A DNA stretch of 40,018 bases from Calditrichia bacterium (lineage in GTDB: Bacteria > Calditrichota > Calditrichia > RBG-13-44-9): the NCBI GenBank assembly GCA_037381445.1, contig JARRQT010000012.1:1-40018 (forward strand). Reading direction: 5' to 3'. Positions 1 through 40,018 of the stretch are shown here, one piece after another (the stretch's first letter is position 1; each line of letters begins with the position of its first letter). Under the pieces are notes generated by a model. The model saw only the letters and a list, made by a program, of their open reading frames with translations. It searched no databases and was not told the origin of the DNA. Both the position numbers and the translations under genes were made by a program.

Positions 1-576
1 TATAGGAAACATACCCACGAAGGAAGAAAACTGCGGATTCAGAAGATTCCCTTCCATCACTTTTCCGGTAATGGGATTTGGCCGGTCAAGGACTACGTAA
101 GGTTTTCCCTGTTCGGCGGCGGCTTCCATGGCCAGCGCCATGGTAGAAATGTAGGTGTAGTATCGCGCGCCGATGCCCTGGATATCAAAAACCAGAATAT
201 CCACATTCTTCAGCATTTCCGGCGTCGGCTTGCGCGTAGTCCCGTACAAGCTGTAAACGGGAATTTGCCGTGAACTGTCCAGATCCGAGTTGATCGTATC
301 GCCGGCGGAGGCCTTGCCCCCGATACCATGCTCGGGACCAAAAAGAGCTGTTATCCGGACATCTTTCAGCTCGCGAAATACGTCGGTGATATAACGGCCT
401 TTGGAGTCGTAGCCGGTATGATTGGTAATGATGCCAACCCGCCTGTTTTTAAAGAGGTCATGGAATTCGCTGACACGGTCCAGGCCGGTCTGCACGGTGA
501 CCTTCGGCTGGGTGGAAGAGCCGCAGCCCAGCAACAGGGCTGACAAAATGAAAGGAAAGAAGGTTTTGATTTTCAT
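1..576 (-). CDS. namZ: Exo-beta-N-acetylmuramidase NamZ (DUF1343/YbbC) lipoprotein; 3' end runs off the window
   Basis: Absent from the ORF track; translated by hand from ATG 576 (GAGG upstream). It reads MKIKTFFPFILSALLLG-C (lipobox), then VQTGLD, RVGIITNHTG, LFGPEHG, IPVYSLYG, KPTPEML, FDIQGIGARYYTY and VLDRPNPI, which are DUF1343 motifs. Confidence 0.93.
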   Translation of the reverse strand, partial: MKIKTFFPFILSALLLGCGSSTQPKVTVQTGLDRVSEFHDLFKNRRVGIITNHTGYDSKGRYITDVFRELKDVRITALFGPEHGIGGKASAGDTINSDLDSSRQIPVYSLYGTTRKPTPEMLKNVDILVFDIQGIGARYYTYISTMALAMEAAAEQGKPYVVLDRPNPITGKVMEGNLLNPQFSSFVGMFPI

Positions 577-622
577 GACGAGTCTTCCTCTTTTTTTGTT
601 TTTTCAATTTTATTTTAAAATG

Positions 623-3203
623 TCATCGAATCAAAATCATCTTATGACTTTTGGAATAATTACCGGCTTTCAGACGATAGATGTAGACCCCGCTGGCAAC
701 CGGGACGCCCCGATCGTCGTTGCCGTCCCAGAGAACCTCATAGAAACCCGCTGCCTGCCTATCGTCCAGTAATAAACGGATTTTTCTTCCCAGCAGATCA
801 AAGATGGTAAGCTGCACCTTGACCGATCTGGCAAGGCGGTAGGTGAGGGTAGTGGATGGATTAAACGGGTTTGGAAAATTCTGATCCAAAGCGAATGAAC
901 CGGAAAGGGAAATGGGTTCTTTGCCATCAATGCCCACCGGAGTGTCAAAATCGAGTACGTTTGCCATGATGTCGTAGCCGGTATTAAAATCGGACGGGGT
1001 TCCCTGGTTGTCCTGCCAGACGCAGTAGATATTTTTCCCCTGCAATTTGACATCCGGAGAATGCTGCGTTCTGCTCTTCCCGGTTGTTATTTGAAAGTTT
1101 TTTCCAATGGGGGTGCCTTGCGCGGAAAATCTCTGGCCGAACATTTCCCATAGATCAGCGCCTGTATTCCCCGATTCCCAGACGATCACAAAATCTCCCG
1201 TCTCATTAAATGCAATGACCGGATTTCTCAGTTCAGCATTGACAAAGGCCGGCCTGTCGCTTATCCGAATGACGGAATCCACTCTTGCCCCTGATCTTGA
1301 AAAGCGCTGCATAACCAAATTTTTCGTGCTATCTACTTGATTATATTCATACCAGCACATCAGAAAATCTCCCGAGGGGGCTATAGCCAGACCAGGGAAA
1401 AAACAGTGGCATTCATTGTCTGGGCTGACCAGAAAGTTGCCGCCCATTTTTTGACCATCGCTTGCATACAACTGGGCATAAATTGCACCTATCCCATTCC
1501 TGTTATCACTCCAGGCAAAAACAGTCTGCCCGTCAGGCCACATCGCCACAGACGGAGAAAAATGATCAACTTCTGCTGAATCGGCATTAACAATAAAATT
1601 GGGTCCCACGGGTTTTCCCATGTTTGTAAATCTTTGTCCAAATATTTTGCCATAGATTGTATTGACAGACTGGCTCCACCCGATGATAATATTTCCCAGG
1701 GAATCCGTTGCTGTGGACAGTGAAGATTCAATTAATCGTATACGGTTGCTGTTTTCATTTACCTTAAAAATCTCTCCCTGCGGACTGGCATCATCCGTAA
1801 AAAGCTGTGCATATACATTCCAGTCATAGTTTGACGGGCCACGGCCGAGCCAGGCGATCAAAAAGTTGCCGGATTCAGATTTAACACCCACAGGAGCATA
1901 ATTCTCATCGGGAATATCAGACCCGACCGTATACGGCGAGTCGAGGGGAGTGCCGTCTGCGGAGAATTTCTGAACATAAATATCGGGATTGCCGTTTCGA
2001 TAATCCTGCCAGGTCACCGTAAATTCACCATTCTGGTTCAAAATCAATGAAGGATGGGTCTGATCAGCACAGGAGAGGCTGTCGTCATTGATCTTTACGG
2101 GTGTATCGAGCGGCTCACCCGTTTTCGAGAATTTTTGTGCGTATATGTTATCGTAATAAATGTCATGGAGAAACGAATCTCCTTCACTCCAGGTAAATAT
2201 AAAATCACCGTTGCCAGCGCTGGCGACACCCGGATATTTCTGCGAGTTTGAATCATTCCAGCTAGGGATAATAAAAGGATCACCCGCCGGCGAGCTGTCA
2301 TCATTAAACAGGCGGGCGCAGATCGTTCTGTCGGATAAATCTGTCGGGTCCCACGGCCAGGTGACCATAAAGTTGCCGGAATCCGAAGCGGCGACACCCA
2401 ATTGGGTCATATTTTTCTGACTGCTCATGTCTTCGGAAGCCACCTCAAAATTTTGCGCGGTTGTTCTTTGTCCGTATTTATCAAAACGCTGGCCATAAAC
2501 ATGGTAATCCGCTCCTGTCCAGACGACAATGAAATTATCGGACCTGTCAAATGAAATATCCTTTTCGGTCCATGTCGGGACTGCAGAATCGTCGTTTATC
2601 TTGAAGTTAAGGCCAAGGCGCTCTCCATTATTGGAAAATAACTGGGCATAGAGTCCCAGAGACGGCCCTCTGTTGTCAAACCAGGTAATTACAAAATTTC
2701 CCTGGCTGTCGCTTGAATTGGTTGATAAATCCGCTTGAATTGGCAACCAGCATTGTCTGGCTTGCCGGAGAGCCATCACTGGAGAAGCATCTGAAATAAA
2801 CATTACACTGTGAATATGGCGGATTTTTGATTCCTATCCAGGTCACCACAAAATTTCCACTGCTGTCCATCGCGCCCGACAGGAACCTGATGCCATCAAA
2901 CAGGCTGTCTCCGGTCAATTTGACGTTGGGGCCGGCTGGAGCGCCGCCTTCATCAAAAACCTGGGCGTAGATTGCCGGTTTAAGCTCCCGCATGTCAATC
3001 CAGGCGGCTGCCGACCTGCCTTTCCAGTTTGAGAAGATGCGGGGATCTATCTTCCAGGATCCTATTTTGCCTGAGTAATCATTTATCACCATGTCCGGCA
3101 AAACAGGATTCAGCGTCTGAGTATAAGCCGGTTTGGATACAAATAAAAGTGCAGAGAATGAAAAGCAAAAGGTCATACAAAATGTTATTCTTTTCATAGC
3201 CAT
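623..3203 (-). pseudogene. Frameshifted T9SS-secreted protein: about 13 beta-propeller-type repeats plus FlgD-Ig/type A CTD, split into ORFs 2676..3203 and 623..2803
   Basis: The upstream ORF has a signal peptide and two DxxGNFxxxW...YxQxFxxxG repeats. The same repeat continues in another frame from about 2710 (SDSQGNFVITW) and ends in QNFPNPFNPST...ASGVYIY...KMILIR. Confidence 0.85.
2710..2743. repeat. 12-bp direct repeat CGCTTGAATTGG x2 (period 22 bp) at the frameshift site
   Basis: Exact copies at 2710-2721 and 2732-2743. Confidence 0.9.
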
Positions 3204-3222
3204 AGAACCTTTCGTTTATGTC

Positions 3223-4329
3223 TCAGATTTTTATAAAGATTCTTTTTCTGAACATAATGCCTGCTATTAAAAGAAAGAATAGTACATTGACAATCGCAAA
3301 TGCCAGCGAGGCGTTGACGGGGCTTGTCCAGGGCATGAAGAGATTGCTAAATATCCAGTTTTTCAGGGCAACGGAATTCCCGCCTTCTCCCGCCCATTTT
3401 ATAATATTCATGCTTCTGGCCAGCACACCGGCGAGCACGAATACGGCAATGGCATTCATTCCGTACATAATGGCAGGATACGCCCATCTGCGGATTCCCT
3501 TGACATCGATCAGCCAGTAGCAGAAGCCCAGAAACTGCAGCGCTGCTCCGGATGTAAATACAACATAAGAACTGGTCCATAGGGATTTGTTGATGGGGAA
3601 GATGATATGCCAGAACATGCCTGTGACAATACCAATCCAGCCGACCACGAACATTCCCCCGGCGATTTCATTTTTCTCTTTTCCCGAATTTAGCCAGTGA
3701 CCGGTCAGCACGCCGGTAAGGGCGGTGGCAACAGCCGGAATGGTGCTCAGCAGACCTTCCGGGTCCCAGGTTTTGCTCTGGGCCCAGAGATGGCCGTGGA
3801 GAAGCAGATTGTCAATAAAAGCGGCCAGGTTTCCTTCCGGTGTCAGTTGACCGGCTCCATGTCCGGGGACAGGTATCAGTTTCATCAGCGCCCAATAAGC
3901 CAGCAAGACGGCGCCGGTGATCCAGACCTGGGTCCGCAGGTGCGTATTCATGGTTATAAGAGCTGTTATGCCATAAACAACGGCGATCCGCTGCAGCACA
4001 CCTGGAATGCGCAGGCCGGAAAGTTCAAAAAAGGGAAAGGCGTTGAGAAAAAGCCCCAGTCCGAAAAGAATGAGAGTCCTTTTCAGTATTTTCAGATAGA
4101 CATACTTTCTGTCATGCAGGGCGAGCTGTTTTTTCTGAGCAAGGGTAATGGCCACTCCGACAATGAACAGAAAGAATGGAAAAATTAGGTCAGTGGGCGT
4201 CCAGCCGTGCCAGGCGGCATGGCGAAGCGGCGCATAGACGTGCCCCCAGCTTCCCGGATTATTGACCAGTATCATGCCGGCAATGGTGATCCCGCGGAAT
4301 GCATCAAGGGATTCCAGGCGTTTTTGCAT
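3223..4329 (-). CDS. nagX: NagX / heparan-alpha-glucosaminide N-acetyltransferase (HGSNAT, DUF5009-like) multi-TM membrane protein
   Basis: Motifs RLESLDAFRG, MILVNNPG, LRHAAWHG, DLIFPFFLFIVG, PGVLQRIA, DPEGLLST, PINKSLWTSSY and GMNAI; many TM helices; AGGA RBS. Confidence 0.88.
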   Translation of the reverse strand: MQKRLESLDAFRGITIAGMILVNNPGSWGHVYAPLRHAAWHGWTPTDLIFPFFLFIVGVAITLAQKKQLALHDRKYVYLKILKRTLILFGLGLFLNAFPFFELSGLRIPGVLQRIAVVYGITALITMNTHLRTQVWITGAVLLAYWALMKLIPVPGHGAGQLTPEGNLAAFIDNLLLHGHLWAQSKTWDPEGLLSTIPAVATALTGVLTGHWLNSGKEKNEIAGGMFVVGWIGIVTGMFWHIIFPINKSLWTSSYVVFTSGAALQFLGFCYWLIDVKGIRRWAYPAIMYGMNAIAVFVLAGVLARSMNIIKWAGEGGNSVALKNWIFSNLFMPWTSPVNASLAFAIVNVLFFLLIAGIMFRKRIFIKI

Positions 4330-4822: not shown

Positions 4823-4851
4823 TTGCAAATTATATGTGGCATATTTATACT
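4823..4851 (+). promoter_or_regulatory. Putative sigma70-type promoter for the rightward operon
   Basis: TTGCAA (4823-4828), 17 bp spacer, TATACT (4846-4851). It lies in the AT-rich divergent intergenic region and is overlapped by the inverted repeat TGCAAAT...ATTTGCA (4824-4860). Confidence 0.5.
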
Positions 4852-5148: not shown

Positions 5149-6087
5149 GTGATAATTTTTTTGGTTTTGGAATATAGCTGTCTGGAGCGTGTTATCCGGA
5201 AATTAAGAAAAGGTCCGGGTAACATATCCGTTCTTGGCCGGAGGTTACTGTCCATTCTGATAGGCGAGCTGACTGATGAGCTTCTCCGGGGGCGGAAAAC
5301 CGATGAAATCGCAGGCGCCACGTTTGCTTTCGCCGGGGCGGGGAGAGTCCCGGAAAAGCGGATGGCAGGCGAGGTTATACAAGAAGCAGGGATCAAGAAC
5401 TTTACGATTATGACAGATGCCGAAATTTTACATTACTCCATATTTGGCGAGCAGGCGGGTATCCTGATATCAGCCGGTACGGGTTCGGTTTGCCTGGTAA
5501 AACGGAAGGACCTGGGCTACCTTCAGCTTGGCGGATGGGGGTATCTGCTCGGCGACGAGGGAAGCGGATTTCATATTGGAAATCTGGCCATTCGCCGGGT
5601 ACTGCATAATGCTCAAAAGGGAAATGTCAATACCGGCTTCACTCAAAAAATACTCTCATTCTATAATATTGACCATCCCAGAAACATTATATCCGCCATT
5701 TATTCTTCTTCAAATCCGTCAAACCTGGTGGCTTCCTGCGCCAGGCTGGTTTGCGAGCTTGCCGAGGCGGGAGATGCTGAAGCAGACAGCATCATCATGA
5801 GCGCGGCGGAAGTACTGGTGGATTTGGCCCAGCAGGCGATCCTTTATTATGATTTGAATGAATCCGAGAAATACCGGATATCCCTGGCAGGCAGCATCCT
5901 GGCGGATGTTTCCGCTGTTAACAGAAAATTCAGGGAAATTGCCCTGAAAAGGAATCTGAAACTGGAATACATCGCTCAGGAAATGGAGCCTTCGGCTGCT
6001 GCGGTGCTGCACGCAATGAAGATGGCGGATGCCGAAATTCCCGGTTCACTGACAGGCAAATTAAAATCCTTACGCTTCAATAATTGA
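5149..6087 (+). CDS. BadF/BadG/BcrA/BcrD-family amino-sugar kinase (MurK/GlcNAc kinase-like), apparently 5'-truncated
   Basis: GPGN, FAGAG, TDAE, ISAGTGS and GGWGYLLGDEGSG are present. The N-terminal GIDGGGTKT phosphate-1 motif is absent and the start is uncertain (GTG with no clear RBS). Confidence 0.82.
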   Translation: MIIFLVLEYSCLERVIRKLRKGPGNISVLGRRLLSILIGELTDELLRGRKTDEIAGATFAFAGAGRVPEKRMAGEVIQEAGIKNFTIMTDAEILHYSIFGEQAGILISAGTGSVCLVKRKDLGYLQLGGWGYLLGDEGSGFHIGNLAIRRVLHNAQKGNVNTGFTQKILSFYNIDHPRNIISAIYSSSNPSNLVASCARLVCELAEAGDAEADSIIMSAAEVLVDLAQQAILYYDLNESEKYRISLAGSILADVSAVNRKFREIALKRNLKLEYIAQEMEPSAAAVLHAMKMADAEIPGSLTGKLKSLRFNN

Positions 6088-6157
6088 TAATCAAGAAGAG
6101 GTCATTATAAACCGGCAGTTAAACCATTTTTCATATTCAACAAGGAAAAAGGAAATC

Positions 6158-9043
6158 ATGACACTCGTACGTCCGGAAATGAAAAGAAAGAAATATGCGT
6201 TCCTTATCTTCTTTATGCTTATGCTTTTGATTAGTTGTGCAGGTGTTCGACAGAAAGAGCCCGGAAACCGGGTGGACCAGCAGCTCCGTTCCATGAGTCT
6301 GGAACAAAAGATTGGTCAGATGATGGTTTACGGGTATACACCTCATTTCCCCAACGATGAAGACGGCCAGTTCCGGCATCTGGAAAGGCTGGTGAAGAAC
6401 TATCATCTTGGAGGACTTATTTTATGGAGAGGCGATCCCTATACGGCGGCTCGAACGATTGAAAAAATCCAATCTGTTTCCGAAATCCCCCTGATGATTA
6501 TGGCTGATATGGAATGGGGTGTTACGATGCGCGTCAATGAGGGCACCACTTTCCTGCCCAACATGGCGATCGGGGCCACGAATTCGGAGGAATATGCCTA
6601 TCAAATGGGTAAAATCAGCGCGGAAGAAGCCCGTGCTGTGGGGATACATGTCAATTTTGCACCGGTCATGGATGTCAATAATAATCCGGATAATATTATC
6701 ATCAACACCCGTTCCTACGGTGAGGACCCGGCACTGGTTTCAAAACTGGGGGCAGCCTTTATCCGGGGCACACAGGAGAATGGGATTATTGCCTGCGCAA
6801 AACATTATCCGGGACACGGCGACACGGATGTGGATTCTCACTTGGGACTTCCCACAATTGCGGCAAGCAGTGAACGACTGAATGAAGTGGAACTCGTTCC
6901 TTTCCAGGCGGCTGTGGACGCCGGCGTTAAGATGGTGATGGTAGCGCATATTACCTACAGTGATTTTCCGCAGATGGAAGGGCGCCCGGCCACACTCGAT
7001 CCCTATTTTATTAAGGATGTCCTGCGGAAAAAGATGGGATTCAAAGGTCTTGTGGTCACCGATGCGATGGGAATGGGAGGCGTTGTGAATAATTACTGGT
7101 CAGGCCAGGCAGCGGTCATGGCCATAAATGCCGGGATTGATTTGGTGCTGGATTCCCCTAATTTTGAACCGACCTTCAAATTCGTGCTGCAGGCTGCCAG
7201 AGACGGCCGCATTTCCATGGATAGAATTAATGAAGCGGTCCGCCGGATACTTGAAGCGAAACAGGAGTTGGGCCTTGAAAAGAAGCCCGTCATGAACTGG
7301 CAGCACTTCGAAAAAGTATTTGCCAAACCTGAAAACAGGGCGCAAAGCGAAGATATCGCAGACGCCGCCATAACCCTTCTGCGTGATGAAAAAAATGTGA
7401 TTCCGTTCAAAGCGGACCGCTTGGACAGCGTCCTGGTAGTGGCAATTACCGACAGGGAGTGGAGCTATACCTATCGCGATATGCTTGAGCGTGAAGTGTC
7501 CCGGAGAATCCCTTATGTCCGGAGCGCCCTGATAGATCCACGTTCTTCTGCCGAAGAAATAAAAGAGATAATTAGCGAAGCAGATTCGTCGCAGGCTGTT
7601 ATTGCAGGGCTTTTTATCACCTGGGGAAGTTATAAAGGTTCGGTGACCATGCCGGACACCACGGTAAAGCTGCTCCATGAATTATTCAGCATTGAAAAAC
7701 CAATGGCTGTCGTTTCTTACGGCTCACCGTATCTGATCCGACAGATTCCGGAAGTGCCGACCTATTTATGCGCCTATGCAACTGATCATCTTGCCGTGCG
7801 GTCTTCTATGAAAGCCGTTTTTGGGGAAATTCCCCTGAACGCAAAAATCCCGGTGTCAATTCCGGCACTGGCCGAAATCGGTGATGGTTTATCGAGACCG
7901 CCATATGATATGGAACTGGTAAAGGAAATTGATGATGATTTTATGGCGGACGCCTACCAGTCAATCGATCAGGCGATTGCCGATTCCGTTTTTCCGGGGG
8001 CCCAGATTGCGGTGGTGCATGACGGAAAACTGATCGCCAGCCGCAGCTTCGGACATCAAACCTATGATGCCGATTCTCCTGAAATTACCAGTGAAACCAT
8101 GTACGATCTTGCCTCGGTGACAAAGGTTATTGCCACCACAGCCATCGCTATGCGGCTTTATGAACAGAAGAAACTCAGACTAGATATACCTGTCAAAAGT
8201 TATCTGCCGCAGTTTTCGGGGGGAATGAAAGATTCTGTTACCGTCCGCCACCTTCTGACCCATTCTGCCGGAATTCTCTGGTGGGATGCCCTCTGGAAAA
8301 ATGCCAAAACAAAGGAGGAGGCCCTCAATTATATTTATTCGCTTCCTCTTGTTTATGCGCCCGGAGATTCCATGATCTACTCCGACCTGGGACTCATTAT
8401 GGTCGGTCAGATTATCGAAACCGTTACCGGCAGATCGTTGGATCAGCTTGCCAGGCAAATGATTTATGAACCGATGGGTATGACAGAGACGATGTTCAAT
8501 CCGCCCAAAAGCTTGTTGTCCCGAATTGCCCCCACAGAAATCGGCGGCAGTATGAACCGCGGTCTCATTCATGGTGAAGTCCATGATGAAAATGCCTTTT
8601 TCCTGGGGGGTGTTTCCGCCCACGCGGGATTATTTTCTACTGCGCAAGATCTGGCAAAATTTTCTCAAATGCTTTTAAATGGCGGAATTTATAAAAATAA
8701 ACGGTTTTACTCACCAGAGACAATTAAATATTGGACGACTGCACAGAATATTCCGCCGGGCAGCAATCGGGCCCTGGGATGGGATACTCCCTCTGCGAAA
8801 GGCTCTTCGGCTGGCGACTATTTCTCGACTGGAAGTTTTGGACACCTGGGTTTTACCGGTACCTCTATCTGGATTGATCCGAACCGAAAGATTGCGATTG
8901 TGCTTTTAACGAACCGTGTTTATCCAAGCAGGGAGAAAAAAGGAATTTATGGAGCCCGGCGGGAATTCTATAATAGGGCCATGAAGGCCCTGCTTCAAAA
9001 AATGGGGCTGAATATTAATGCGGAAACCGTCGCTGCGGACTGA
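6158..9043 (+). CDS. nagZ: Lipoprotein fusion: GH3 beta-N-acetylglucosaminidase (NagZ) plus C-terminal beta-lactamase-fold serine hydrolase (AmiE-like)
   Basis: Lipobox LLIS-C; NagZ signature KHYPGHGDTDVDSH; nucleophile motif VTDAM. The C-terminal domain has LASVTK (SxxK), YSDLG, GEVHDENA, HAGLFS and GHLGFTG. Confidence 0.93.
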   Translation: MTLVRPEMKRKKYAFLIFFMLMLLISCAGVRQKEPGNRVDQQLRSMSLEQKIGQMMVYGYTPHFPNDEDGQFRHLERLVKNYHLGGLILWRGDPYTAARTIEKIQSVSEIPLMIMADMEWGVTMRVNEGTTFLPNMAIGATNSEEYAYQMGKISAEEARAVGIHVNFAPVMDVNNNPDNIIINTRSYGEDPALVSKLGAAFIRGTQENGIIACAKHYPGHGDTDVDSHLGLPTIAASSERLNEVELVPFQAAVDAGVKMVMVAHITYSDFPQMEGRPATLDPYFIKDVLRKKMGFKGLVVTDAMGMGGVVNNYWSGQAAVMAINAGIDLVLDSPNFEPTFKFVLQAARDGRISMDRINEAVRRILEAKQELGLEKKPVMNWQHFEKVFAKPENRAQSEDIADAAITLLRDEKNVIPFKADRLDSVLVVAITDREWSYTYRDMLEREVSRRIPYVRSALIDPRSSAEEIKEIISEADSSQAVIAGLFITWGSYKGSVTMPDTTVKLLHELFSIEKPMAVVSYGSPYLIRQIPEVPTYLCAYATDHLAVRSSMKAVFGEIPLNAKIPVSIPALAEIGDGLSRPPYDMELVKEIDDDFMADAYQSIDQAIADSVFPGAQIAVVHDGKLIASRSFGHQTYDADSPEITSETMYDLASVTKVIATTAIAMRLYEQKKLRLDIPVKSYLPQFSGGMKDSVTVRHLLTHSAGILWWDALWKNAKTKEEALNYIYSLPLVYAPGDSMIYSDLGLIMVGQIIETVTGRSLDQLARQMIYEPMGMTETMFNPPKSLLSRIAPTEIGGSMNRGLIHGEVHDENAFFLGGVSAHAGLFSTAQDLAKFSQMLLNGGIYKNKRFYSPETIKYWTTAQNIPPGSNRALGWDTPSAKGSSAGDYFSTGSFGHLGFTGTSIWIDPNRKIAIVLLTNRVYPSREKKGIYGARREFYNRAMKALLQKMGLNINAETVAAD

Positions 9044-9096
9044 TTGCTCCCATGTTATTTGAGTTTTAATTGATTTGATTATTGGAAGGATTTTGA

Positions 9097-10623: not shown

Positions 10624-10691
10624 AATCTGATAAGTGAATTGGGAGGCCCAGTGCCTGTTGTGAATTGCGAAAGATTAATGTGGAGAGATTG

Positions 10692-15890: not shown

Positions 15891-15918
15891 TCTAAATAAA
15901 AATTCTGTAACGAGGAAA

Positions 15919-19095: not shown

Positions 19096-19135
19096 AAGTA
19101 TGAAAAGCCATGAAAATTCACCAAGGGTGATTTCT

Positions 19136-22171: not shown

Positions 22172-22181
22172 GGATATCACT

Positions 22182-32902: not shown

Positions 32903-35437
32903 ATGAATATGAGAGATAAATTTATTATTGCAGCATTTCTTCTTTTTCCAATACTGGCTATGGCGCAGGTAACCGGATTGTCAGATTGGAATATTTTTGT
33001 GGATCCGGGGCATAGCCAGAATGAAAACATGCCAACTTTTAGCTGGGCAATCTCCGAAGCAAAACGTAATGTGCGGGTCGCACTGGAACTCCGTGACATG
33101 CTGATGAACGAAACCGACATTGATACCGTGTATCTTTCCAGAACAAATGATACGCAAAGCGTATCCCTGTCGCAGCGCACGGATCTGGCAAATTTCCTGA
33201 AGGCTGCCTGGTATCATTCTATTCACACGGATGCCGGCGGAGAAAGCAGCAACAGCACACTGCTCTTATGGGGCGGATGGATAGATAACGGAACGATCGT
33301 TGAGAAGACTCCGAACGGCGGACAAGCCATGAGCCAGATCATGGTCGATCTTTTGACAAGGGGAATGAGAACCACAACCCGTGGGGACTATGCCGACCGT
33401 ACCTTTTATGAAGGCTTTCCCTATAATCATGATAAGCATTATCCTTATCTGCATGTCAATCGTGAAAGTGATATGGCCTCGGAACTGAGCGAGGCCGGAT
33501 TCCATACCAATCTCAGGCAAAATCAGTTGTATATGAACCATGACTGGCGCCGAATGGAAGCCCGCACCTTTTTCTGGTCAATTCTGGCCTATCACAACAT
33601 TCCGCGTCCCCCCGCTGATATTGTGGCCGGGATTATCACCGATGCCGAAAGCGGTATACCGATCAATGGTGCGGTAATTAGCGTTGAGGGTCGCCAGTAT
33701 GTCACAGACACCTATGAATCCTTGTTTAACCAGTTTACCAGCGATCCTGACCTGCTTCACAATGGCTTTTATTATCTGGAAAATATGGATTACGATTCGG
33801 TCACCATCTCTGTAAATGCTGAAAATTATGTTCCTGACAGCGCCCGGATCGCTGTTTCCAGCACCTTCTTCACTTTTAAGGATTTCGCCCTGGTTTCCAG
33901 CATTCCGCCATACCTCGCATCCAGCACGCCCGCAGATGGCGATACGGCAGTTTCGATTCTGGATGACATCGTCTTAACTTTCAGCAGACCAATGAATGTG
34001 GAGAGCGTTGAATCTTCACTTACCATCCAGCCTGAAATACCGCTGAATTTTTCATGGAGAGAAAACAACAGCCAATTGAGAATCCAAAGCGATTCACTGG
34101 AGTTCCTGACGAATTATACAATCACTATCCCCGGTAGCGTCACGGATCAATATGACCATCTATTCGATGGTGATGCGGATGGAAATGGGGGAGATGGTCT
34201 GAGTCTTTCTTTCAAAACCGGCTTCGATGTTTATCCTCCCAAGGTGATTGCCTATTATCCCTCCCGCTACCAGAAAGATGTGGAAAGAAGACCCATTGTA
34301 AATATTGAATTTGATGAAGAGCTGGCGGATACATCCATCACACCTGAAAATGTATTTTTGGAGAAATTCGATACAAAAGAGACGGTTCCCGGTATTATAA
34401 AGCATTATGTGGTGGATAAAAGAAGCGTGCTGAATTTTTTCCCGACGGAAGATCTGACCCCCGGCGCACTATATGTGGCAAGAATTTACCCGGGATTAAA
34501 GGACCTCTACGGAAATGCAACTGTCACATATTTATCCGTAAGCTTTAACGCAGCGACAACGGATCTGCAGGTAACGCCAATCGATCCCCTCGAGGCCGGT
34601 TTCTCATCCTATTGGTGGCAGCCCGCCAATAGCGGCAGCACCACCGGCATCAATCCCAGCCCCGGAATTTATATGGAGGAGAGTCAGGATTATCTGAATG
34701 AACTAACGTCCAGTCAAAGATCGCTCAAATTATATTATGACTGGGACCTCAATGCTTCGGGATGGCTGATTCGCGAGTATCTGAGCGGAGGAGCGCCGCG
34801 CAGCGTCTTCTTTGATACTACCTACACACTGCAATGTTATGTTTTTGGCGATGGCAGCCATAATTTGTTCCGCTTTGCACTGGATGAAGGGGACGGGGCA
34901 TCCTGGCCAAACCATGAAGTCTCCCAGTGGTATGAAATTGACTGGCTGGGCTGGAAACTGATCGAATGGAAATTAAGTGATCCTTCCACCGTTCAGAGCT
35001 GGGCAGGTCTGGGCAACGGCAAACTGGATATGCCGAGCTACCGTATAGACAGTTTTCAGCTTGCCTATCAGGCCGGCGCCTTTCCCAAAGGATTCGTCTA
35101 TTTTGACGATCTGCGGCTTGTGAAGAAGATTCCCACTTCAATCGCCAGGACAAATCCCGAAGGGCTCATTCCCGACAGATTCTCTTTGGACCAGAATTAT
35201 CCCAATCCTTTTAATCCTGCTACCACTATTTCATTTTCGATTCCGAAGAAGGTTCATGTATCAATCGGTATCTATAATACGCTGGGCCAGCTTGTGAAGA
35301 CGCTTGTTTCGGAAGAAAAAAATCCCGGCAATTACCGTATCAGTTTTGACGCTTCCAGTCTGGCATCGGGGATTTATGTTTATGAAATGAGAGCCGGAGA
35401 TTTTGTTCAGGCGAAAAAAATGATTTTTATGAAATAA
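32903..35437 (+). CDS. Secreted N-acetylmuramoyl-L-alanine amidase (Amidase_3) with CarboxypepD-like, 2x Big_5, jelly-roll module and type A CTD
   Basis: Zn/catalytic motifs FVDPGH, SEA..N, LSR....VSLSQR..LAN, SIHTDA and LSEAGF; CTD QNYPNPFNP...KKMIFMK. Confidence 0.9.
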   Translation: MNMRDKFIIAAFLLFPILAMAQVTGLSDWNIFVDPGHSQNENMPTFSWAISEAKRNVRVALELRDMLMNETDIDTVYLSRTNDTQSVSLSQRTDLANFLKAAWYHSIHTDAGGESSNSTLLLWGGWIDNGTIVEKTPNGGQAMSQIMVDLLTRGMRTTTRGDYADRTFYEGFPYNHDKHYPYLHVNRESDMASELSEAGFHTNLRQNQLYMNHDWRRMEARTFFWSILAYHNIPRPPADIVAGIITDAESGIPINGAVISVEGRQYVTDTYESLFNQFTSDPDLLHNGFYYLENMDYDSVTISVNAENYVPDSARIAVSSTFFTFKDFALVSSIPPYLASSTPADGDTAVSILDDIVLTFSRPMNVESVESSLTIQPEIPLNFSWRENNSQLRIQSDSLEFLTNYTITIPGSVTDQYDHLFDGDADGNGGDGLSLSFKTGFDVYPPKVIAYYPSRYQKDVERRPIVNIEFDEELADTSITPENVFLEKFDTKETVPGIIKHYVVDKRSVLNFFPTEDLTPGALYVARIYPGLKDLYGNATVTYLSVSFNAATTDLQVTPIDPLEAGFSSYWWQPANSGSTTGINPSPGIYMEESQDYLNELTSSQRSLKLYYDWDLNASGWLIREYLSGGAPRSVFFDTTYTLQCYVFGDGSHNLFRFALDEGDGASWPNHEVSQWYEIDWLGWKLIEWKLSDPSTVQSWAGLGNGKLDMPSYRIDSFQLAYQAGAFPKGFVYFDDLRLVKKIPTSIARTNPEGLIPDRFSLDQNYPNPFNPATTISFSIPKKVHVSIGIYNTLGQLVKTLVSEEKNPGNYRISFDASSLASGIYVYEMRAGDFVQAKKMIFMK

Positions 35438-35512: not shown

Positions 35513-37960
35513 ATGAAAATAGGGTGTTCCATATTAACTGCCATCTGCCTGTTCTGGCTGCCTCTGCAGGCGCAGACAGAATTTCATACCGACATCACAA
35601 CGCAGGTGGGGCCGGGAATGACCTACAGGCATATCGTCGCGCCGACCCGGCTCTGGAATATTAATGTACTGGAAATAGACCTGACCAATCCCTATGTCAC
35701 CATGCAAACCGTCAAAGCAAACGACCGTCTGCAGGGCATGGAAATCGTCAGCTCCATGGCGGCCCGTCATAGTTATGAGGGACATGAGGTGGTTGGCGCG
35801 ATTAACGGAGATTTTTATGATACCAGCAACGGTGTTCCGCTCAACACCCAGGTTATAAACGGGGAAGTCCTGAAGAATCCAAATGGATGGCCCACGCTTG
35901 GTTTTGACATAAATAATCATCCTTACATCGATCCTGTGACCTTCGCCGCAAAAATTATGGTCGGTGACCTGGAATATGCCGTGGCGGGGGTGAACAAAGA
36001 CCGTTCCACCGACGAGCTGATCCTTTATAATTCGTTTAAGGGCTCATCCACCGGGACCAACCAATACGGGTATGAGCTTAGCATTGCGCCGGTCGATCCC
36101 TGGATCGTCAACGATACGGTGCGATGTGTGGTAGAAGCTATTGATACTGATGGTGATATGCCCATCAGCAAAGGGAAAGCAGTGCTCTCCGGGCATGGTG
36201 CCGCAGCCGTATTTTTGCAAAACAACCTGCAGATCGGAGACACTGTCGGGGTGCAGCTTCAGCTTCTTCCCGGGCTTGCCAATCTGGTGCAGATGGTCGG
36301 AGGAAATAATAAAATACTGACAGATGGAGTATACAGCGGCGGTGGGGATACTGCTGTCCATCCGCGCACATTTGTGGGAATATCCGCCGACAAAAAGACT
36401 CTTTATATCGCCACGGTAGATGGCCGGGTTGTGGGGTGGTATAACGGAATGTCCTATCGCGATCTTGCCAATTTTATGCTTTACCTGGGAGCTTCGGATG
36501 CAATTAATCTGGATGGTGGCGGCTCGACCACATTTGTTTTATATGGGGATGTAAAAAATCATCCTTCCGATGGTCAGGAGCGGCATGTCGCAAACTCGAT
36601 GCTCTGCGTTTCCCTGGCTCCGGCAGGCACTGGCACAGCATCTATCCAGGTCGAACCCGATAACCAACGCGTTTTTCTCAAAAATGGATTTTGGATTACC
36701 GTCAAAGGCTGGGACGAATATTTCCATCCATCGCCGATCAATACTGAGGAATTAAGCTTTAACGTGGACCCTAATCTTGGGCAGGTATCACAGAGTGGTT
36801 ATTTTTTGGCAGCAGGAGAACCCGATAGCGGTTATGTTTATGTGACCTGCCAGGGATTGAAGGATTCCGTCTATATCTTCATAAAAGGCATTAAAGATAT
36901 TGATATCTCGCCCCGTGCGCTTACCACGGATTCCATTCAAACGGTGCAGTTCCATGTCAATCCTACCGATGTGGACAATCTGCACCCCGAAATTGCGCTC
37001 AGTGATTATCATTGGAATTGTTTAAATCCTGAAGTTGGTGTAATCGACACAACCGGCAAATTTAAGGGCATAGCAGAAGGTCAGGCTAAAGTAGTGGTGC
37101 AATTCCGTGGAAAAACCGATACTGCCCTGGTAACAGTCGAGATCGGCAAGGATATGGTGACACTGGATACCATGGATGTTGCTGGCAACTGGACTGTTTC
37201 CGGGGAACTTTATGACGCCCAGGCGACAACATTGACCGCCGTCGATACACCGAAAACAACCGGGAAGAAGGCATTGCGTCTGGACTATCAGTTTGTGCGC
37301 AGCAGTGAAGGCCGAAGTTGGGTGTATCTCGATACGGACGAGGATATCTACGGATTGCCCGACACCATTCTGCTTGACATAAAATCAAACGGAATGAAAC
37401 ATATTGCCGATGTGATTATCAGTGATGACAACGATGAACTGTTTGCTGCCTCCACCGGCCTTTTCTCGACTTCAGCAACCGGATATGAGACCTATAAGAT
37501 CCCGTTGTCAAAATTTAATGCCATCGATGCCGGCTCCGCTTTCCATTTCCCAATCAGAATGAGGGGTATCCACATCAAATTAATGTATACCGGCGTTGTC
37601 GGGGACACCAATAGCGGCACCCTTTATTTTGATAATCTGAGACTTCATTATCCAACGGTGACCGGCATAAAATCCCAAACCGGAAAATTGATTCCCAGGG
37701 AGATTCAGCTATATCAGAATTATCCGAACCCTTTCAATCCCAATACGAAAATCCGGTACAAGACACAACGGAACGGGATGGTTCTTCTGGAAGTGTATGA
37801 TTTGTTGGGTCAGAGGGTCTGCACACTCGTCAATGCCCGTCAGAATGCCGGCGTTCATACGGTGAATTTTGAAGCAGGAAATCTGGCCAGCGGCATCTAT
37901 TTTTATCGGTTGCTGGCAGACCAGCATGCGATATTGAGAAAAATGATCCTTATGAGATAA
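35513..37960 (+). CDS. Secreted phosphodiester glycosidase (NAGPA/DUF2233) with Big_2-like, jelly-roll module and type A CTD
   Basis: GAINGDFY, HPRTFVG, VDGR, AINLDGGGSTT and ERHVAN; CTD QNYPNPFNP...RKMILMR. Confidence 0.9.
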   Translation: MKIGCSILTAICLFWLPLQAQTEFHTDITTQVGPGMTYRHIVAPTRLWNINVLEIDLTNPYVTMQTVKANDRLQGMEIVSSMAARHSYEGHEVVGAINGDFYDTSNGVPLNTQVINGEVLKNPNGWPTLGFDINNHPYIDPVTFAAKIMVGDLEYAVAGVNKDRSTDELILYNSFKGSSTGTNQYGYELSIAPVDPWIVNDTVRCVVEAIDTDGDMPISKGKAVLSGHGAAAVFLQNNLQIGDTVGVQLQLLPGLANLVQMVGGNNKILTDGVYSGGGDTAVHPRTFVGISADKKTLYIATVDGRVVGWYNGMSYRDLANFMLYLGASDAINLDGGGSTTFVLYGDVKNHPSDGQERHVANSMLCVSLAPAGTGTASIQVEPDNQRVFLKNGFWITVKGWDEYFHPSPINTEELSFNVDPNLGQVSQSGYFLAAGEPDSGYVYVTCQGLKDSVYIFIKGIKDIDISPRALTTDSIQTVQFHVNPTDVDNLHPEIALSDYHWNCLNPEVGVIDTTGKFKGIAEGQAKVVVQFRGKTDTALVTVEIGKDMVTLDTMDVAGNWTVSGELYDAQATTLTAVDTPKTTGKKALRLDYQFVRSSEGRSWVYLDTDEDIYGLPDTILLDIKSNGMKHIADVIISDDNDELFAASTGLFSTSATGYETYKIPLSKFNAIDAGSAFHFPIRMRGIHIKLMYTGVVGDTNSGTLYFDNLRLHYPTVTGIKSQTGKLIPREIQLYQNYPNPFNPNTKIRYKTQRNGMVLLEVYDLLGQRVCTLVNARQNAGVHTVNFEAGNLASGIYFYRLLADQHAILRKMILMR

Positions 37961-38075
37961 GAGCCCGGCATAAGGGCATTCATGATCGAAAATGCAATGC
38001 ATTTGAAGTTCAGTTGGCTGAGATCAAAAGAACTGATGCAATCGTCGGGCATCAGCAAAGCAATTAAATTTTTCG

Positions 38076-38094
38076 AACCGCCAAAATGGCGGTT
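38076..38094. other. Intergenic hairpin upstream of the NlpC/P60 gene
   Basis: AACCGCCA-AAA-TGGCGGTT forms an 8-bp stem without a long U-tract. Confidence 0.4.
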
Positions 38095-38137
38095 TCACCG
38101 GAAAGAAAATATCCTGAATGTTGCAACGAGGTCAACG

Positions 38138-39268
38138 ATGACGAGAAAGTCTGTATATTTTTTAACATTTCTGCTCCTGATAATTCTTAGCTCCTGCGGA
38201 CGGCAAGATCAAATTGCAGGGAAATTCTCGGAAAGATCCGAAGAGATCGGGAAAAAGTATGCACCGGACAAGAGTCTGAATTTGTTCACCGCTCGATTAA
38301 CATACGGCGATAGTAAATGGGTGCTGAGAGGAGAAACCACGGTTCCCGCGGCAAAGGCTGAATTAGTATCCTGGGCAGATTCGGTTATAGGCGATGAAAA
38401 ATATCTTGATAGTCTGAGAGTTCTTCCGGATACGGATTTGGGCGACAATATTTATGGAATCATAAATGTAAGTGTGGCCAATATGAGGGATCATCCCCGG
38501 CATTCGGCCCAGATGGTGAATCAGTGTATCATGGGGAAGGCTGTGCACCTTTTGAAAAAAGACGGCGGCTGGTTTCTGGTGCAGACGGACTATGGGTATC
38601 TCGGATGGATGACTGAGGATTCGTTCCTGCGCACCGATCAAAATGGTAAAGAGGAATGGGAATCATCTAAAAAGGTAAAGGTCAAAGAGTTGTTCACAAT
38701 GATTCGTTCTCAGCCGGAAGATAATGCCGAGCCAGTTACCGATGTGGTATTGAATGCACGATTGAAGCCGGGAAAAATATTAGGTATATGGATGGAGGTT
38801 TCCACCCCGGACGGACGTGAGGGCTATCTTCCGCATCGCATGGTGTCGGATGAAGCCGGCGAAAAGCTTTCCGGCGACAAATTAAGATCAAAAATTGTAT
38901 TCACTGCCCGCAGCATGATGGGAATTCCGTATTTATGGGGAGGCAATTCACCAAAGGGAAATGATTGCTCGGGATTTACCCGCACCGTTTTTGAAGCAAA
39001 TGGCATTTATCTGCCGCGCGATGCCAGGCAACAGGTTTTTTCGGGAGAGGAAGTTGTGCCGGATGAAAATTTCTCCAATGTGCTGCCCGGCGATTTATTG
39101 TTCTTTGGCAGTAAAGAGCGAATAACGCACGTGGGAATCAGCCTGGGAGGCACAGAGTTCATTCATCAGAGCGGGTGGGTTCATGTTGCCAGCCTGAATC
39201 CAGGATCATCAGTTTACAGTCCATCACGGAAAAGTGGATTGCAGAAGATTAAGAGAATTTTTAAATAA
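38138..39268 (+). CDS. ykfC: SH3b + NlpC/P60 lipoprotein, YkfC-like gamma-D-Glu-diamino acid endopeptidase
   Basis: GAGG then ATG 38138; lipobox LSS-C; SH3b-like segments; PYLWGG...DCSG...PRDA...PGDLLFF...THVG...FIH (Cys-His-His triad). The ORF track extension to 37982 is unlikely. Confidence 0.87.
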   Translation: MTRKSVYFLTFLLLIILSSCGRQDQIAGKFSERSEEIGKKYAPDKSLNLFTARLTYGDSKWVLRGETTVPAAKAELVSWADSVIGDEKYLDSLRVLPDTDLGDNIYGIINVSVANMRDHPRHSAQMVNQCIMGKAVHLLKKDGGWFLVQTDYGYLGWMTEDSFLRTDQNGKEEWESSKKVKVKELFTMIRSQPEDNAEPVTDVVLNARLKPGKILGIWMEVSTPDGREGYLPHRMVSDEAGEKLSGDKLRSKIVFTARSMMGIPYLWGGNSPKGNDCSGFTRTVFEANGIYLPRDARQQVFSGEEVVPDENFSNVLPGDLLFFGSKERITHVGISLGGTEFIHQSGWVHVASLNPGSSVYSPSRKSGLQKIKRIFK

Positions 39269-39285
39269 CAGCGGAAAGGAAAATC

Positions 39286-40018
39286 ATGGTATTAAGCAGA
39301 AAAGAGTTCCTGTCAATTTCCGGAAGCACGTTTTTAGGGCTGACTTTTTTTAATCCCTTTTTCAAAGCTTCCGGCGCAGATTCGGGTGATTTTGAAAACA
39401 TACCTGGACTATCTCAAGAAATTCCAGCGATTATAAAACCAACGTTTTTGTAAAATTGCAAAGGGACGGCATTATTGGCTATGGCGAAGCGGCACCCAAT
39501 GTCAGGTATGGCGAAAATGCGGAACTGACAACCCAGAGATTAAACGAAGCGGCGCACATTCTGAAAGATCACGATTTGAATCATTATATTGACATAAAAG
39601 AGGCAATAGACTCCGCTATCTCTGATCAAAGCTGCGCCAAGGCTGCGCTTGATATCGCCATGATGGATTGGGTGGGAAAATCCATTGGTGTTCCGCTGTA
39701 TAAATTGTGGGGGCTCAATACGGCCCATTCACCGGCAACCTCATTTTCCATTGGTATTGATACACCGGAGGTCATCAAACAAAAAGTTGCCGAAGCCGCG
39801 CCCTATCGCATTCTGAAAATAAAAGTTGGTACAAAAGATGATGAAATGATTGTCAAAACGGTCCGCAGTGTGACGGATAAACCGATCCGGGTGGATGCCA
39901 ATGAAGGCTGGAAAACAAAAGAAGAGGCAATCAAAAAAATAGAATGGCTGGCCAATCAGGGCGTGGAATTTGTTGAGCAGCCGATGCCTTCAAATATGCT
40001 TGAAGAAACCGCCTGGCT
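39286..40018 (+). pseudogene. ykfB: L-Ala-D/L-Glu dipeptide epimerase (YkfB/YcjG, enolase superfamily) with Tat-like signal; frameshifted near 39395 and runs off the window
   Basis: Translated by hand. ATG 39286 gives MVLSRKEFL... which stops early. The frame opening at 39396 reads KHTWTISR...GYGEAAP...AALDIA..D..GK...PLY...TSFSIG...LKIKVG...RVDANEGW...FVEQP. Confidence 0.87.

Follow-up and report, generated by a model that had tools for sequence, protein, structure and literature searches.

A PUL-like locus of a Calditrichia bacterium and its probable role in feeding on external peptidoglycan

The stretch of DNA considered here, called the window throughout, is the entire contig C12 (40,018 bp; JARRQT010000012.1) of a metagenome-assembled genome (MAG) of a Calditrichia bacterium. 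To judge from its protein families it encodes a system, akin to a polysaccharide utilisation locus (PUL), that probably feeds on external peptidoglycan, be it wall debris or, possibly, prey, and the probability of this is put at about 0.7. Enzymes tailed for a secretion system of type IX (T9SS), two tandem TonB-dependent outer-membrane units, lipoproteins apparently suited to dismantling muropeptides and a block for the catabolism of N-acetylmuramic acid (MurNAc) lie side by side. An external substrate is to be expected, since T9SS-tailed enzymes leave the cell, TonB-dependent transporters (TBDTs) import from outside it and MurNAc auxotrophy does not apply to the organism.

Exported enzymes and the breakdown of glycan and peptide

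Every gene family listed in the initial annotation was confirmed by Pfam and NCBIfam scans, which covered 23 open reading frames (ORFs) of the window, and beyond that list lie a NagX-like gene, the X/PorV-like/TIG cassette genes (15044-19095 and 22140-28287) and a PD40 propeller. The 19 genes from 5149 to 40016 are co-directional, with intergenic gaps of 0-278 nt (Table 1). It had also been argued that exported hydrolases together with outer-membrane importers imply scavenging of foreign walls, and this is borne out by five T9SS tails, by the TonB transporters and by the SprA translocon encoded elsewhere in the MAG (contig C78, 759 bits summed). The tails match Por_Secre_tail (TIGR04183) at 28-41 bits against a cut-off of 23, in the GHL10, Amidase_3 and NAGPA-like proteins among others, and with a C-terminal tail and a T9SS in the genome these proteins can be classed as T9SS type A cargo.

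MurQ and NamZ act on MurNAc, and Amidase_3 enzymes cut the MurNAc-L-Ala bond. The architecture of the window amidase, Amidase_3-Big_5-T9SS, is found again in Rhodohalobacter sp. 8-1, and the pairing of PD40 with Amidase_3 recurs in five related genomes (G001-G005) and at the Rhodohalobacter locus (L058). The GHL10 domain has as its sole solved relative C. difficile Cwp19 (5oq2, E 1.2e-31), which reportedly cleaves peptidoglycan, and is 25% identical (E 6e-25) to E. coli DigH, the "divisome localized glycosyl hydrolase" of the K-12 record, which is said to prefer peptide-free glycan strands. The syntenic GHL10 of Rhodohalobacter (15769-17748 of L058) is 36% identical to DigH (E 3e-75), and two GHL10 subtypes occupy the same locus position, that of the window (28566-30100; also in G001 and at locus L018) and a commoner, more DigH-like one. 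Solved relatives of the NAGPA-like enzyme are 3ohg (DUF2233) and, weakly, human NAGPA.

With three wall hydrolases exported by T9SS it is conceivable that they are primarily weapons for lysing competitors or prey and that uptake of the products is secondary, and a prey-scavenging habit is compatible with all the results. As a first purpose this is distinctly unlikely, however: no lysozyme, M23-type or other recognised lytic endopeptidase was found in the window by Pfam or NCBIfam, the preference of DigH-type GHL10 for peptide-free strands fits processing over killing, an outer membrane would shield Gram-negative prey, and nutrition is suggested by how closely the hydrolases are linked with two importers and a complete catabolic route.

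The peptide side of the wall is represented by the last two genes of the window. The NlpC/P60 protein, the start of which is likely an internal Met near 38138, has 3npf (199 bits, residues 154-413), 3pvq (188 bits) and YkfC 3h41 (65 bits) as solved relatives, and its NlpC/P60 domain with an N-terminal SH3b domain would make it a YkfC-type endopeptidase. From that internal Met it bears a lipobox-type signal peptide, as do NamZ, the GH3 fusion and the TIG protein; signal peptides and lipoboxes were judged by eye on the sequence. The epimerase gene is frameshifted near 39445, and its MR/MLE ORF (39456-40016) runs off the contig end, so the 187 residues in the window score 66 bits with NF041118 (cut-off 500), 50.5 with NF011708 (343) and 98.6 with DgcA (400). 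Its full-length relatives are named "dipeptide epimerase" in their source records; a protein search gave no full-length copy from the same strain, the best match being 81% identical. Full-length orthologues have about 380 aa and an N-terminal Tat-type signal of about 40 residues, which in eight of them from related loci (L087, L050, L052, L054 and L056 included) reads RRxFL six times and RKxFL twice, the RK form being that of Calditrichota. Four Calditrichota or KSB1 database epimerases start with RKEFL- or RQQFL-type signals, and a signal of the same type can be read by eye in the window frame upstream of the frameshift. The Tat-like signal and the lipoprotein nature of the NlpC/P60 enzyme together suggest that stem peptides are processed in the periplasm.

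On the sugar side MurQ, an etherase, passes the equivalog cut-off in both models. The GH3 part of the lipoprotein fusion finds its best solved relative in B. subtilis YbbD/NagZ (274 bits), and its beta-lactamase-fold domain, which may correspond to AmiE, reaches 208 bits with the PBP4B model against a cut-off of 385. In the kinase the N-terminal DGGGTKT, the phosphate-1 motif of the ASKHA fold, is absent from all three window frames and present in 9 of 9 relatives. A pseudogene can be set aside: its 90% cluster has just one further member, P0227 (321 aa), encoded on a 3,305-nt contig from a different assembly, which keeps the motif intact and is otherwise identical to the window kinase, and so the defect lies in the assembly and not in the gene. 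The order kinase-GH3-SSS-MurQ, SSS being a sodium:solute symporter, is found also on contig C80 of the closest relative (G001).

The NamZ gene is cut by the contig end, its NamZ_C domain lying beyond the window, and in G001 NamZ adjoins NagX. A second, complete NamZ (393 aa, NamZ_N and NamZ_C) is encoded on contig C116 of the MAG (4173-5354); it is 44% identical to that of the window and adjoins a DinG-type helicase gene, without wall-related context. The NagX-like protein aligns end to end with NF046061 (3-368 of 369) at 218.5 bits, where the cut-off is 480, and by this score counts as a family relative only.

The outer-membrane uptake units and a proposed route

The outer-membrane unit, present as two tandem copies, consists of a TBDT, an X protein of about 730 aa and a PorV-like barrel. 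Between the copies the transporters are 42% and the barrels 49% identical. X1 and X2 gave no match among Pfam or NCBIfam, and the nature of X1 is instead indicated by an AlphaFold model (pLDDT 79.4, pTM 0.79). Residues from about 40 to 500 form a galactose-mutarotase-like beta-supersandwich, with 5nz7 (the GH94 N-domain) as best VIA match (Z 18.2, rmsd 3.8, 272 aligned), and structure alignments of the model also bring up N-terminal domains from GH94, GH15, GH65 and GH116 enzymes, and galactose mutarotases. An FN3 domain follows (504-603; 2w1n, Z 11.7, rmsd 1.6, 86 aligned), and then a variant T9SS C-terminal domain (608-724), which matches that of PorZ (5m11, Z 11.4, rmsd 2.7, 87 aligned, 29% identity). 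In a Foldseek search with the same model FN3 matches predominated, and little could be read from it.

When residues 604-724 of X1 were predicted in complex with barrel 1, three runs gave ipSAE values of 0.90, 0.91 and 0.90, against 0.00 for the best among three controls; at least 97% of contacts were common between runs, and the partner pLDDT was at least 85. The ipSAE mark is reached by 116 of 157 solved complexes and by 2 of 215 mismatched pairs, counts that hold only roughly here, custom alignments having been used. The prediction supports a docking of the X1 tail in barrel 1, and on the models it is proposed that X1 is a surface glycan-capture partner of TBDT1 and barrel 1 a private anchor for its tail.

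The lipoprotein downstream of the second unit was modelled (pLDDT 88.5) as an IPT domain and a six-bladed propeller, the propeller matching 8djf by VIA (Z 26.9, rmsd 2.4, 252 aligned). Along its full length it aligns with two proteins of B. thetaiotaomicron, 3tc9 (BT_3476, "auxiliary nutrient binding protein"; residues 38-413, Z 20.3, rmsd 8.6, 336 aligned) and 3hrp (Z 22.5, rmsd 10.5, 328 aligned), the high rmsd arising because the interdomain angle differs. Atlas leads suggest an NHL/SGL-type propeller for the T9SS-tailed protein at 26824..28287. The small protein u238, broken in the window, is an intact lipoprotein in G001.

The locus had been described initially as near-complete and PUL-style, and this stands in so far as the catabolic block adjoins the uptake unit here. 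It needs qualifying in that no SusD/RagB family member is among the Pfam and NCBIfam matches of the 23 ORFs, the transporters being followed instead by the u238/X1/PorV-like and X2/PorV-like genes, and in that the SusC/RagA model TIGR04056 matches only the N-terminal part of the two transporters, its scores of 87.8 and 75.2 bits staying far below the cut-off, which is 368.25. Without SusD and with SusC below cut-off the locus is PUL-like and not a canonical PUL. Its completeness is moreover peculiar to this genome (MurQ, kinase and SSS stand in none of the 79 related loci described below), and nagA and nagB lie on other contigs.

Rows of a transporter, a large protein and a PorV-like barrel were found by tblastn of window proteins on at least 10 other contigs of the MAG. 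Six of the thirteen regions fetched were annotated: GH28, GH88, pectinesterase and pectate-lyase-like genes neighbour the row on C47, GH97 that on C10, GH3, a glucoamylase-like gene and a LacI regulator that on C73, GH66 dextranases and an SSS transporter that on C94, and GH2, GH130 and an ABC transporter that on C9, while C112 has no glycanase nearby. A four-gene form of the unit, with the TIG lipoprotein, is on C85. With such rows beside other glycanases the wall locus appears as one substrate-specific locus among several built on a shared scaffold.

From the family memberships, secretion signals and conserved neighbourhoods observed, with the X1 and TIG folds and the predicted tail-barrel complex, a route of four steps can be drawn in which every activity is inferred. 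Outside the outer membrane the T9SS-exported enzymes would attack foreign wall material, Amidase_3 presumably stripping the stem peptides before GHL10, of the DigH/Cwp19 family, cuts the denuded strands, and the NAGPA-like enzyme may perhaps remove phosphodiester-linked wall polymers. The two paralogous units would then capture and import the products, whichever of these each transporter may carry, with the supersandwich domain of X at the surface, its variant T9SS tail docked in the private PorV/PorQ-like barrel, and with the IPT-propeller lipoprotein and the secreted propeller assisting in capture or import. In the periplasm, the presumed place of the lipoproteins, the NagZ/beta-lactamase-fold fusion and NamZ would degrade oligosaccharides from the non-reducing end to N-acetylglucosamine (GlcNAc) and MurNAc, NagX may re-acetylate glucosamine residues of de-N-acetylated glycan, the YkfC-type NlpC/P60 lipoprotein would cut free stem peptides and the Tat-signal epimerase would convert L-Ala-D-Glu. 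The SSS would finally import MurNAc (or an amino sugar), the BadF-type kinase and MurQ would turn it into GlcNAc-6-phosphate and D-lactate, and NagA and NagB, encoded on other contigs, would complete the catabolism.

Conservation, genome context and the weighing of the substrate

An alignment of X1 with 28 homologues was used as query for a scan of one genome per species. It matched 448 stretches, 426 of which encode an X1 relative, and the best 80 of these 426, at 79 distinct loci, form the basis of all counts out of 79. Genes in the loci were counted by tblastn with window proteins or catalytic domains (query coverage of 50% or more, E no higher than 1e-6), and 39 loci have full 10-kb flanks. 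By their record titles the loci belong to Calditrichota, KSB1, Ignavibacteriota/Melioribacteraceae and Balneolaceae (Gracilimonas, Balneola and Rhodohalobacter sp. 8-1), with MAGs labelled Bacteroidetes, Cytophagia or Chitinophagales besides; an early guess that relatives would be met in Calditrichota, KSB1 and Ignavibacteria thus proved right. The best named relatives of window proteins and loci are Calditrichota ("uncultured Caldithrix sp.", 76-77% identity; Calditrichota bacterium LG25, 72%).

Table 1. Features of the window and their occurrence in related loci
Feature	Position	Strand	Basis	Loci (of 79)	Full-flank loci (of 39)
NamZ-like exo-beta-N-acetylmuramidase (GH171), N-terminal 192 aa	1..576	-	PF07075 NamZ_N 198 bits, profile positions 1-146 of 203	3	
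T9SS-tailed beta-propeller-repeat protein, two overlapping ORFs (623-2803 and 2676-3203)	623..3203	-	Por_Secre_tail / FlgD_ig matches	0	
NagX-like polytopic membrane protein (DUF5009; NCBIfam: transmembrane glucosamine N-acetyltransferase)	3223..4329	-	NF046061, PF16401	10	
BadF/BadG-type sugar kinase, MurK-like	5149..6087	+	PF01869	0	0
Lipoprotein fusion: GH3 beta-N-acetylglucosaminidase (NagZ type) and beta-lactamase-fold (PBP4B/AmiE-like) domain	6158..9043	+	PF00933 304 bits; PF00144 238 bits	3	
Sodium:solute symporter (SSS)	9097..10623	+	PF00474; TIGR00813 195 bits	0	0
MurQ	10665..11609	+	NF003915 402.7 bits (cut-off 168); TIGR00274 382.7 bits (cut-off 302)	0	0
TonB-dependent transporter 1 (TBDT1; CarboxypepD_reg, Plug, barrel)	11849..15022	+	Pfam/NCBIfam	68	
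Small exported protein u238, gene broken by 71-nt omission at 15095/15096	15044..15890	+	G001 orthologue	16	
X1, secreted protein of putative sugar-binding type	15883..18057	+	signal peptide; modelled folds		
PorV/PorQ-family outer-membrane barrel 1	18079..19095	+	NF033709 193 bits (cut-off 90)	73	
TonB-dependent transporter 2 (TBDT2)	19133..22171	+	Pfam/NCBIfam		
X2, X1 paralogue	22140..24353	+	36% identical to X1		
PorV/PorQ-family barrel 2	24406..25413	+	NF033709 173 bits (cut-off 90)		
Lipoprotein, IPT/TIG domain and six-bladed beta-propeller	25441..26712	+	PF01833; model	66	39
T9SS-tailed beta-propeller protein, 487 aa	26824..28287	+	Por_Secre_tail		23
GHL10 glycanase with Big_5 domains and T9SS tail, 1042 aa	28566..31694	+	PF02638 126 bits (gathering 27.9)	43	30
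PD40/TolB-like beta-propeller, signal peptide	31902..32852	+	PF07676	7	
Amidase_3 (N-acetylmuramoyl-L-alanine amidase) with Big_5 domains and T9SS tail	32903..35437	+	PF01520 56 bits	5	
NAGPA-like phosphodiester glycosidase, T9SS tail	35513..37960	+	PF09992 110 bits	10	
NlpC/P60 and SH3b lipoprotein, YkfC / dipeptidyl-peptidase VI type (gamma-D-Glu-diamino-acid endopeptidase)	37982..39268	+	PF00877 83 bits; PF18348 (SH3_16) 46 bits	7	
Dipeptide (L-Ala-D/L-Glu type) epimerase, Tat-like signal, continues on C51	39286..40016	+	MR_MLE_N/C	8	

The scavenging proposal had been tied beforehand to a co-clustering of these genes in relatives, and they are found to cluster. GHL10 stands in 30 of the 39 full-flank loci, a member of a strict peptidoglycan-linked set (Amidase_3, NlpC/P60, epimerase, NamZ, NagX, NAGPA-like and GH3/beta-lactamase) in 21 of them (26 of all 79), and one or the other in 33 (48 of the 79). 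Three distant loci, annotated with Pfam in an unbiased way, agree. That of Rhodohalobacter sp. 8-1 has Amidase_3-Big_5-T9SS, PD40, the unit, a T9SS cargo, GHL10-T9SS and NAGPA-T9SS; that of an Ignavibacteriota MAG has GHL10-T9SS, NlpC/P60-SH3, an MR/MLE epimerase and a NagX homologue; and that of a KSB1 MAG has NamZ and GHL10-T9SS. In five genomes followed past the flanks the unit is surrounded by Amidase_3 with PD40, NAGPA, NlpC with epimerase and NagX, and NamZ. A tandem second cassette, with an X2 orthologue of more than 50% identity, is present in 8 of the 79 loci and in many Calditrichota genomes too.

In G001, the closest genome (Caldithrix; X1 76% identical), one contig carries NamZ, NagX, GH3/beta-lactamase and both uptake units and continues with TIG, the T9SS propeller, GHL10, PD40, Amidase_3 and the NAGPA-like gene, and another carries the kinase, a second GH3/beta-lactamase, SSS, a second SSS, NagB and MurQ, with NlpC/P60 and the epimerase further along. 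A rearrangement separates the G001 and window lineages. Between its two contigs (C16 and C80) G001 has two GH3/beta-lactamase paralogues; the window block is without the second SSS and NagB.

Matches to the X family at E at most 1e-100 occur in 46 of 86 Calditrichota genomes (33 of the 53 of good quality), often as two or three copies 6-10 kb apart, and in 3 of the 16 other genomes of the window's own family; at E at most 1e-30 the family comprises 301 representative clusters among 1.84 billion. MurQ is found in 60 of the 86 genomes, namely in 40 of 46 with X and 20 of 40 without, a tally over related genomes that are not independent. On one contig with X it is found in 11 genomes, at about 4 kb here and at 41, 48, 57, 58, 58, 67, 140, 143 and (twice) more than 300 kb in the others. 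Same-contig distances of 48-68 kb belong to five genomes (G031, G034, G060, G065 and G067), three of them, at 57-58 kb, from one family, and the recurring 57-58 kb spacing hints at a larger conserved island.

A conserved and dedicated peptidoglycan "utilisome" across Calditrichota, KSB1, Ignavibacteriota and Balneolales would go a step further than the reading of this one locus. It would consist of T9SS-exported amidase, glycanase and phosphodiesterase, of one or two TonB channels each with a lid or capture protein that is T9SS cargo locked in a private PorQ-like barrel and not a SusD lipoprotein, and of periplasmic stem-peptide breakdown including a Tat-exported epimerase, and it is held tentatively, at a little under even odds.

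Several findings weigh against peptidoglycan as the substrate, and some of them would suit a target that is another amino-sugar polymer (an exopolysaccharide, a chitin- or chitosan-like polymer or another wall glycopolymer), with the MurNAc block adjacent by an accident of rearrangement. MurQ, the kinase and SSS lie within 10 kb of the uptake unit in none of the 79 related loci, and in G001 the blocks are on separate contigs. Among the 86 Calditrichota genomes this one alone has MurQ within 10 kb of X, half of those without X (20 of 40) still possess MurQ, and the link of uptake to MurNAc catabolism rests on this genome, on an Ignavibacteriales genome (G005) with MurQ 13 kb downstream of X, and on co-occurrence. 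The GHL10 and NAGPA-like families are broad, with few characterised members, the window GHL10 being merely 25% identical to DigH, and the probable continuation of the locus on contig C51 has GH9 and GH2 exo-glucosaminidase genes. Another polymer is nonetheless unlikely: the substrates of Amidase_3, YkfC-type NlpC/P60, dipeptide epimerase and NamZ exist solely in peptidoglycan, in several phyla these four families are again met next to the uptake unit where the MurQ block is absent, and both characterised or solved GHL10 relatives are, by what is reported of them, peptidoglycan enzymes.

The same side of the balance holds further points. No strict peptidoglycan gene is present in 18 of the 39 full-flank loci, and neither such a gene nor GHL10 in 6 of them. 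NagX, the epimerase and the beta-lactamase-fold domain are all below their equivalog cut-offs, and any ligand of the NAGPA-like enzyme, of PD40, of both propeller proteins, of u238 and of X is putative. The tail-barrel score may come from resemblance to known PorV/PorQ-tail pairs and not from the binding of this pair. No lysozyme-type endo-muramidase and no recognised cross-link endopeptidase was found in the window by Pfam or NCBIfam, and so the system may act on fragments or on walls already damaged. The contig itself carries assembly defects (a 71-nt omission, the damaged kinase 5' end, a collapsed repeat and the epimerase frameshift).

The MAG (5.1 Mb, 401 contigs, 91.85% completeness, 2.17% contamination) allows two further origins of the MurNAc to be judged. 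NagZ, NamZ, MurQ, the kinase and a YkfC/YkfB-type pair are classic parts for recycling a cell's own peptidoglycan turnover products, as described in the available passages on B. subtilis (PMC8054146), and on these parts the locus could serve such recycling. That is very unlikely, as T9SS-exported enzymes act beyond the outer membrane, away from the cell's own wall, and TonB-dependent import comes from outside. A cell that recycles the products of its lytic transglycosylases needs AnmK for the anhydro-MurNAc; a search of the MAG, which is 92% complete, gave no AnmK, nor does the window show any AnmK- or AmpG-type parts for anhydro-muropeptides. Salvage of MurNAc for wall building by an auxotroph, in the manner of Tannerella forsythia, would use similar parts, to go by what is accessible on that organism (NamZ, a transporter, a BadF-type kinase and MurQ). 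This is highly improbable, however, since murA is present (572.8 bits against a cut-off of 392.7), so that the organism is not a MurNAc auxotroph, and MurQ channels MurNAc into catabolism. Of murB there is a C-terminal fragment only (104.6 bits; C25 18332-18721, profile positions 149-290, in an open frame of 149 aa), either a broken gene or another assembly gap. On other contigs are nagA (308 bits), nagB (428 bits, on the small contig C384) and an LdcA-like S66 peptidase.

As to the contig, four apparent frameshifts prompted a comparison of window bases 1-20000 with contigs of public runs (runs X1 to X4, not to be confused with the X proteins). Of the sampled words 94% occur in run X1, labelled "salt marsh metagenome", which is possibly the MAG's source sample; runs X2 and X3 belong to a separate study, carry the label "sediment metagenome" and hold a strain 90-95% identical to the window. 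Contigs of these three runs, and hence of two studies, have 71 extra letters between 15095 and 15096, and the window thus omits 71 nt inside the small gene after TBDT1. A contig of run X2 spans the MurQ 3' end into TBDT1, its 86-nt spacer replaced, and in runs X1 and X3 there are contigs that extend from NagX over the spacer into the kinase 5' end, where contig alignments from two runs end at 5189. By these bridging contigs, this population does have the MurQ block and the uptake unit side by side. The idea that two loci had been joined into a chimera, raised by the split of the blocks on two G001 contigs, is excluded for both junctions tested, NagX-kinase and MurQ-TBDT1.

At 2717/2721 contigs of runs X1 and X4 depart from the window; at exactly this point the T9SS propeller-repeat gene is split into two ORFs, and the break is likely a collapsed repeat or a false join. 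The two ORFs are probably a single gene with a collapsed repeat, which, with no counterpart in the related loci, probably lies outside the system, and the placement of the left 2.7 kb of the window beyond the break is uncertain. The spacer between the divergent NagX and kinase genes (4330-5148, about 800 bp) is AT-rich (GC about 0.42) and has no ORFs, and in the strain of runs X2 and X3 it shows single-base deletions at 4581, 4626/4630 and 4677. A tRNA scan of the window found none, Rfam at gathering thresholds gave no family match in the window, this spacer included, and promoter and terminator patterns were no more frequent than in shuffles (16 against 13.4 and 8 against 8.9).

The right end of the window and the start of contig C51 share an overlap of 119 identical nt, and C51 opens with the C-terminal remainder of the epimerase gene, so that the locus probably continues there. 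After the epimerase C51 carries (537-15416) an AraC-type regulator, an SSS transporter of 635 aa that has part of a further SSS gene upstream of it, GH9, an FAD-linked oxidase with a CCG/Fe-S protein, a ROK kinase, an MFS transporter and a GH2 exo-beta-D-glucosaminidase. The FAD-linked oxidase/CCG pair is possibly a D-lactate dehydrogenase, which would consume the by-product of MurQ.

Comparison with known systems

Peptidoglycan is a large and nitrogen-rich pool within bacterial necromass, and no dedicated outer-membrane system for its uptake was found described in the searchable open literature. A TonB-linked, T9SS-coupled peptidoglycan locus likewise found no description in open-access literature and bioRxiv, the Caldithrix abyssi genome paper included; most subscription journals and supplements lay outside that scope. 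The locus combines known parts, PUL-type uptake and known wall-recycling enzymes, in a combination apparently undescribed in print. It offers candidate proteins for import, for capture at the surface, for the stripping of peptides (an amidase) and for the cutting of strands (a glycanase), and at least one organism in culture, Rhodohalobacter sp. 8-1, possesses it. A SusD-less transporter with a T9SS-tailed partner and a private PorV-like barrel appears to carry substrate-specific loci, for wall here and for pectin, dextran and mannan elsewhere in the MAG, and such a unit helps to interpret many unannotated loci of phyla of the Fibrobacterota-Chlorobiota-Bacteroidota (FCB) group outside the Bacteroidia. 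If the utilisome is true, these lineages would be major consumers of bacterial necromass in sediments.

With the SusC/SusD PULs of Bacteroidota the locus shares a TBDT, surface binding proteins, exported and periplasmic exo-enzymes, an inner-membrane importer and the arrangement in one co-directional cluster. The IPT-propeller lipoprotein resembles BT_3476, and other copies in the MAG stand with pectin, dextran and mannan enzymes. It differs in having no SusD, the partner of the transporter being a T9SS-tailed protein with its own PorV-like barrel in place of a lipoprotein. The T9SS attachment complex of P. gingivalis contains PorZ-PorQ and PorU-PorV pairs, and here too a PorZ-like T9SS C-terminal domain is predicted to sit in a PorV/PorQ-family barrel, although the window barrel is a private paralogue beside its cargo in nutrient-uptake loci, with many copies per genome. 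GHL10 belongs with DigH and Cwp19 in Pfam family PF02638, but that of the window is T9SS-exported, has Big_5 domains, is far longer and is of a divergent subtype.

In Bacillus the genes for the endopeptidase and the dipeptide epimerase are paired as ykfB-ykfC. An NlpC/P60-SH3b enzyme followed by an enolase-superfamily dipeptide epimerase is shared with YkfC/YkfB and the DPP VI proteins 3npf and 3pvq; in contrast the window endopeptidase is a lipoprotein, the epimerase family has a Tat-like signal, and both steps may be periplasmic. The sugar side recalls the B. subtilis operon murQ-murR-murP-amiE-nagZ-namZ(ybbC), of which the available passages report that NagZ, AmiE and NamZ digest peptidoglycan sequentially (PMC8054146). 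MurQ, NagZ (closest to YbbD) and NamZ are common to both, and exported exo-enzymes could in either case degrade glycan from the non-reducing end. The window, however, has an SSS and a kinase in place of the MurP phosphotransferase system, lacks MurR, has NagZ fused to a beta-lactamase-fold domain and adds T9SS-exported endo-type enzymes and TonB-dependent import. A GH3/beta-lactamase fusion is known as RmNag3 of Rhodothermus marinus, for which GlcNAc-ase activity alone is demonstrated in the accessible text (PMC6987092).

The SSS and kinase in place of a phosphotransferase system are matched in T. forsythia, in which the transporter MurT is an SSS-type protein. Its salvage cluster comprises namZ1, ampG, lytB, murT, murK and murQ, and the model given in the available passages has foreign wall taken up, peptides stripped by a "so far unidentified" amidase and NamZ acting in the periplasm, passages that name no outer-membrane route and contain neither TonB nor SusC (bioRxiv 10.1101/2021.12.02.470905). 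As far as these passages go, a Gram-negative FCB-group setting, foreign wall uptake, stripping, periplasmic NamZ, MurNAc import and a BadF-type kinase with MurQ are shared. T. forsythia is a MurNAc auxotroph, whereas the MAG has murA, and the window is without AmpG or LytB. The window locus, on the other hand, encodes candidates for both the stripping amidase and the outer-membrane uptake route, and so, were the utilisome true, it would supply these two missing parts of a Tannerella-type salvage model.

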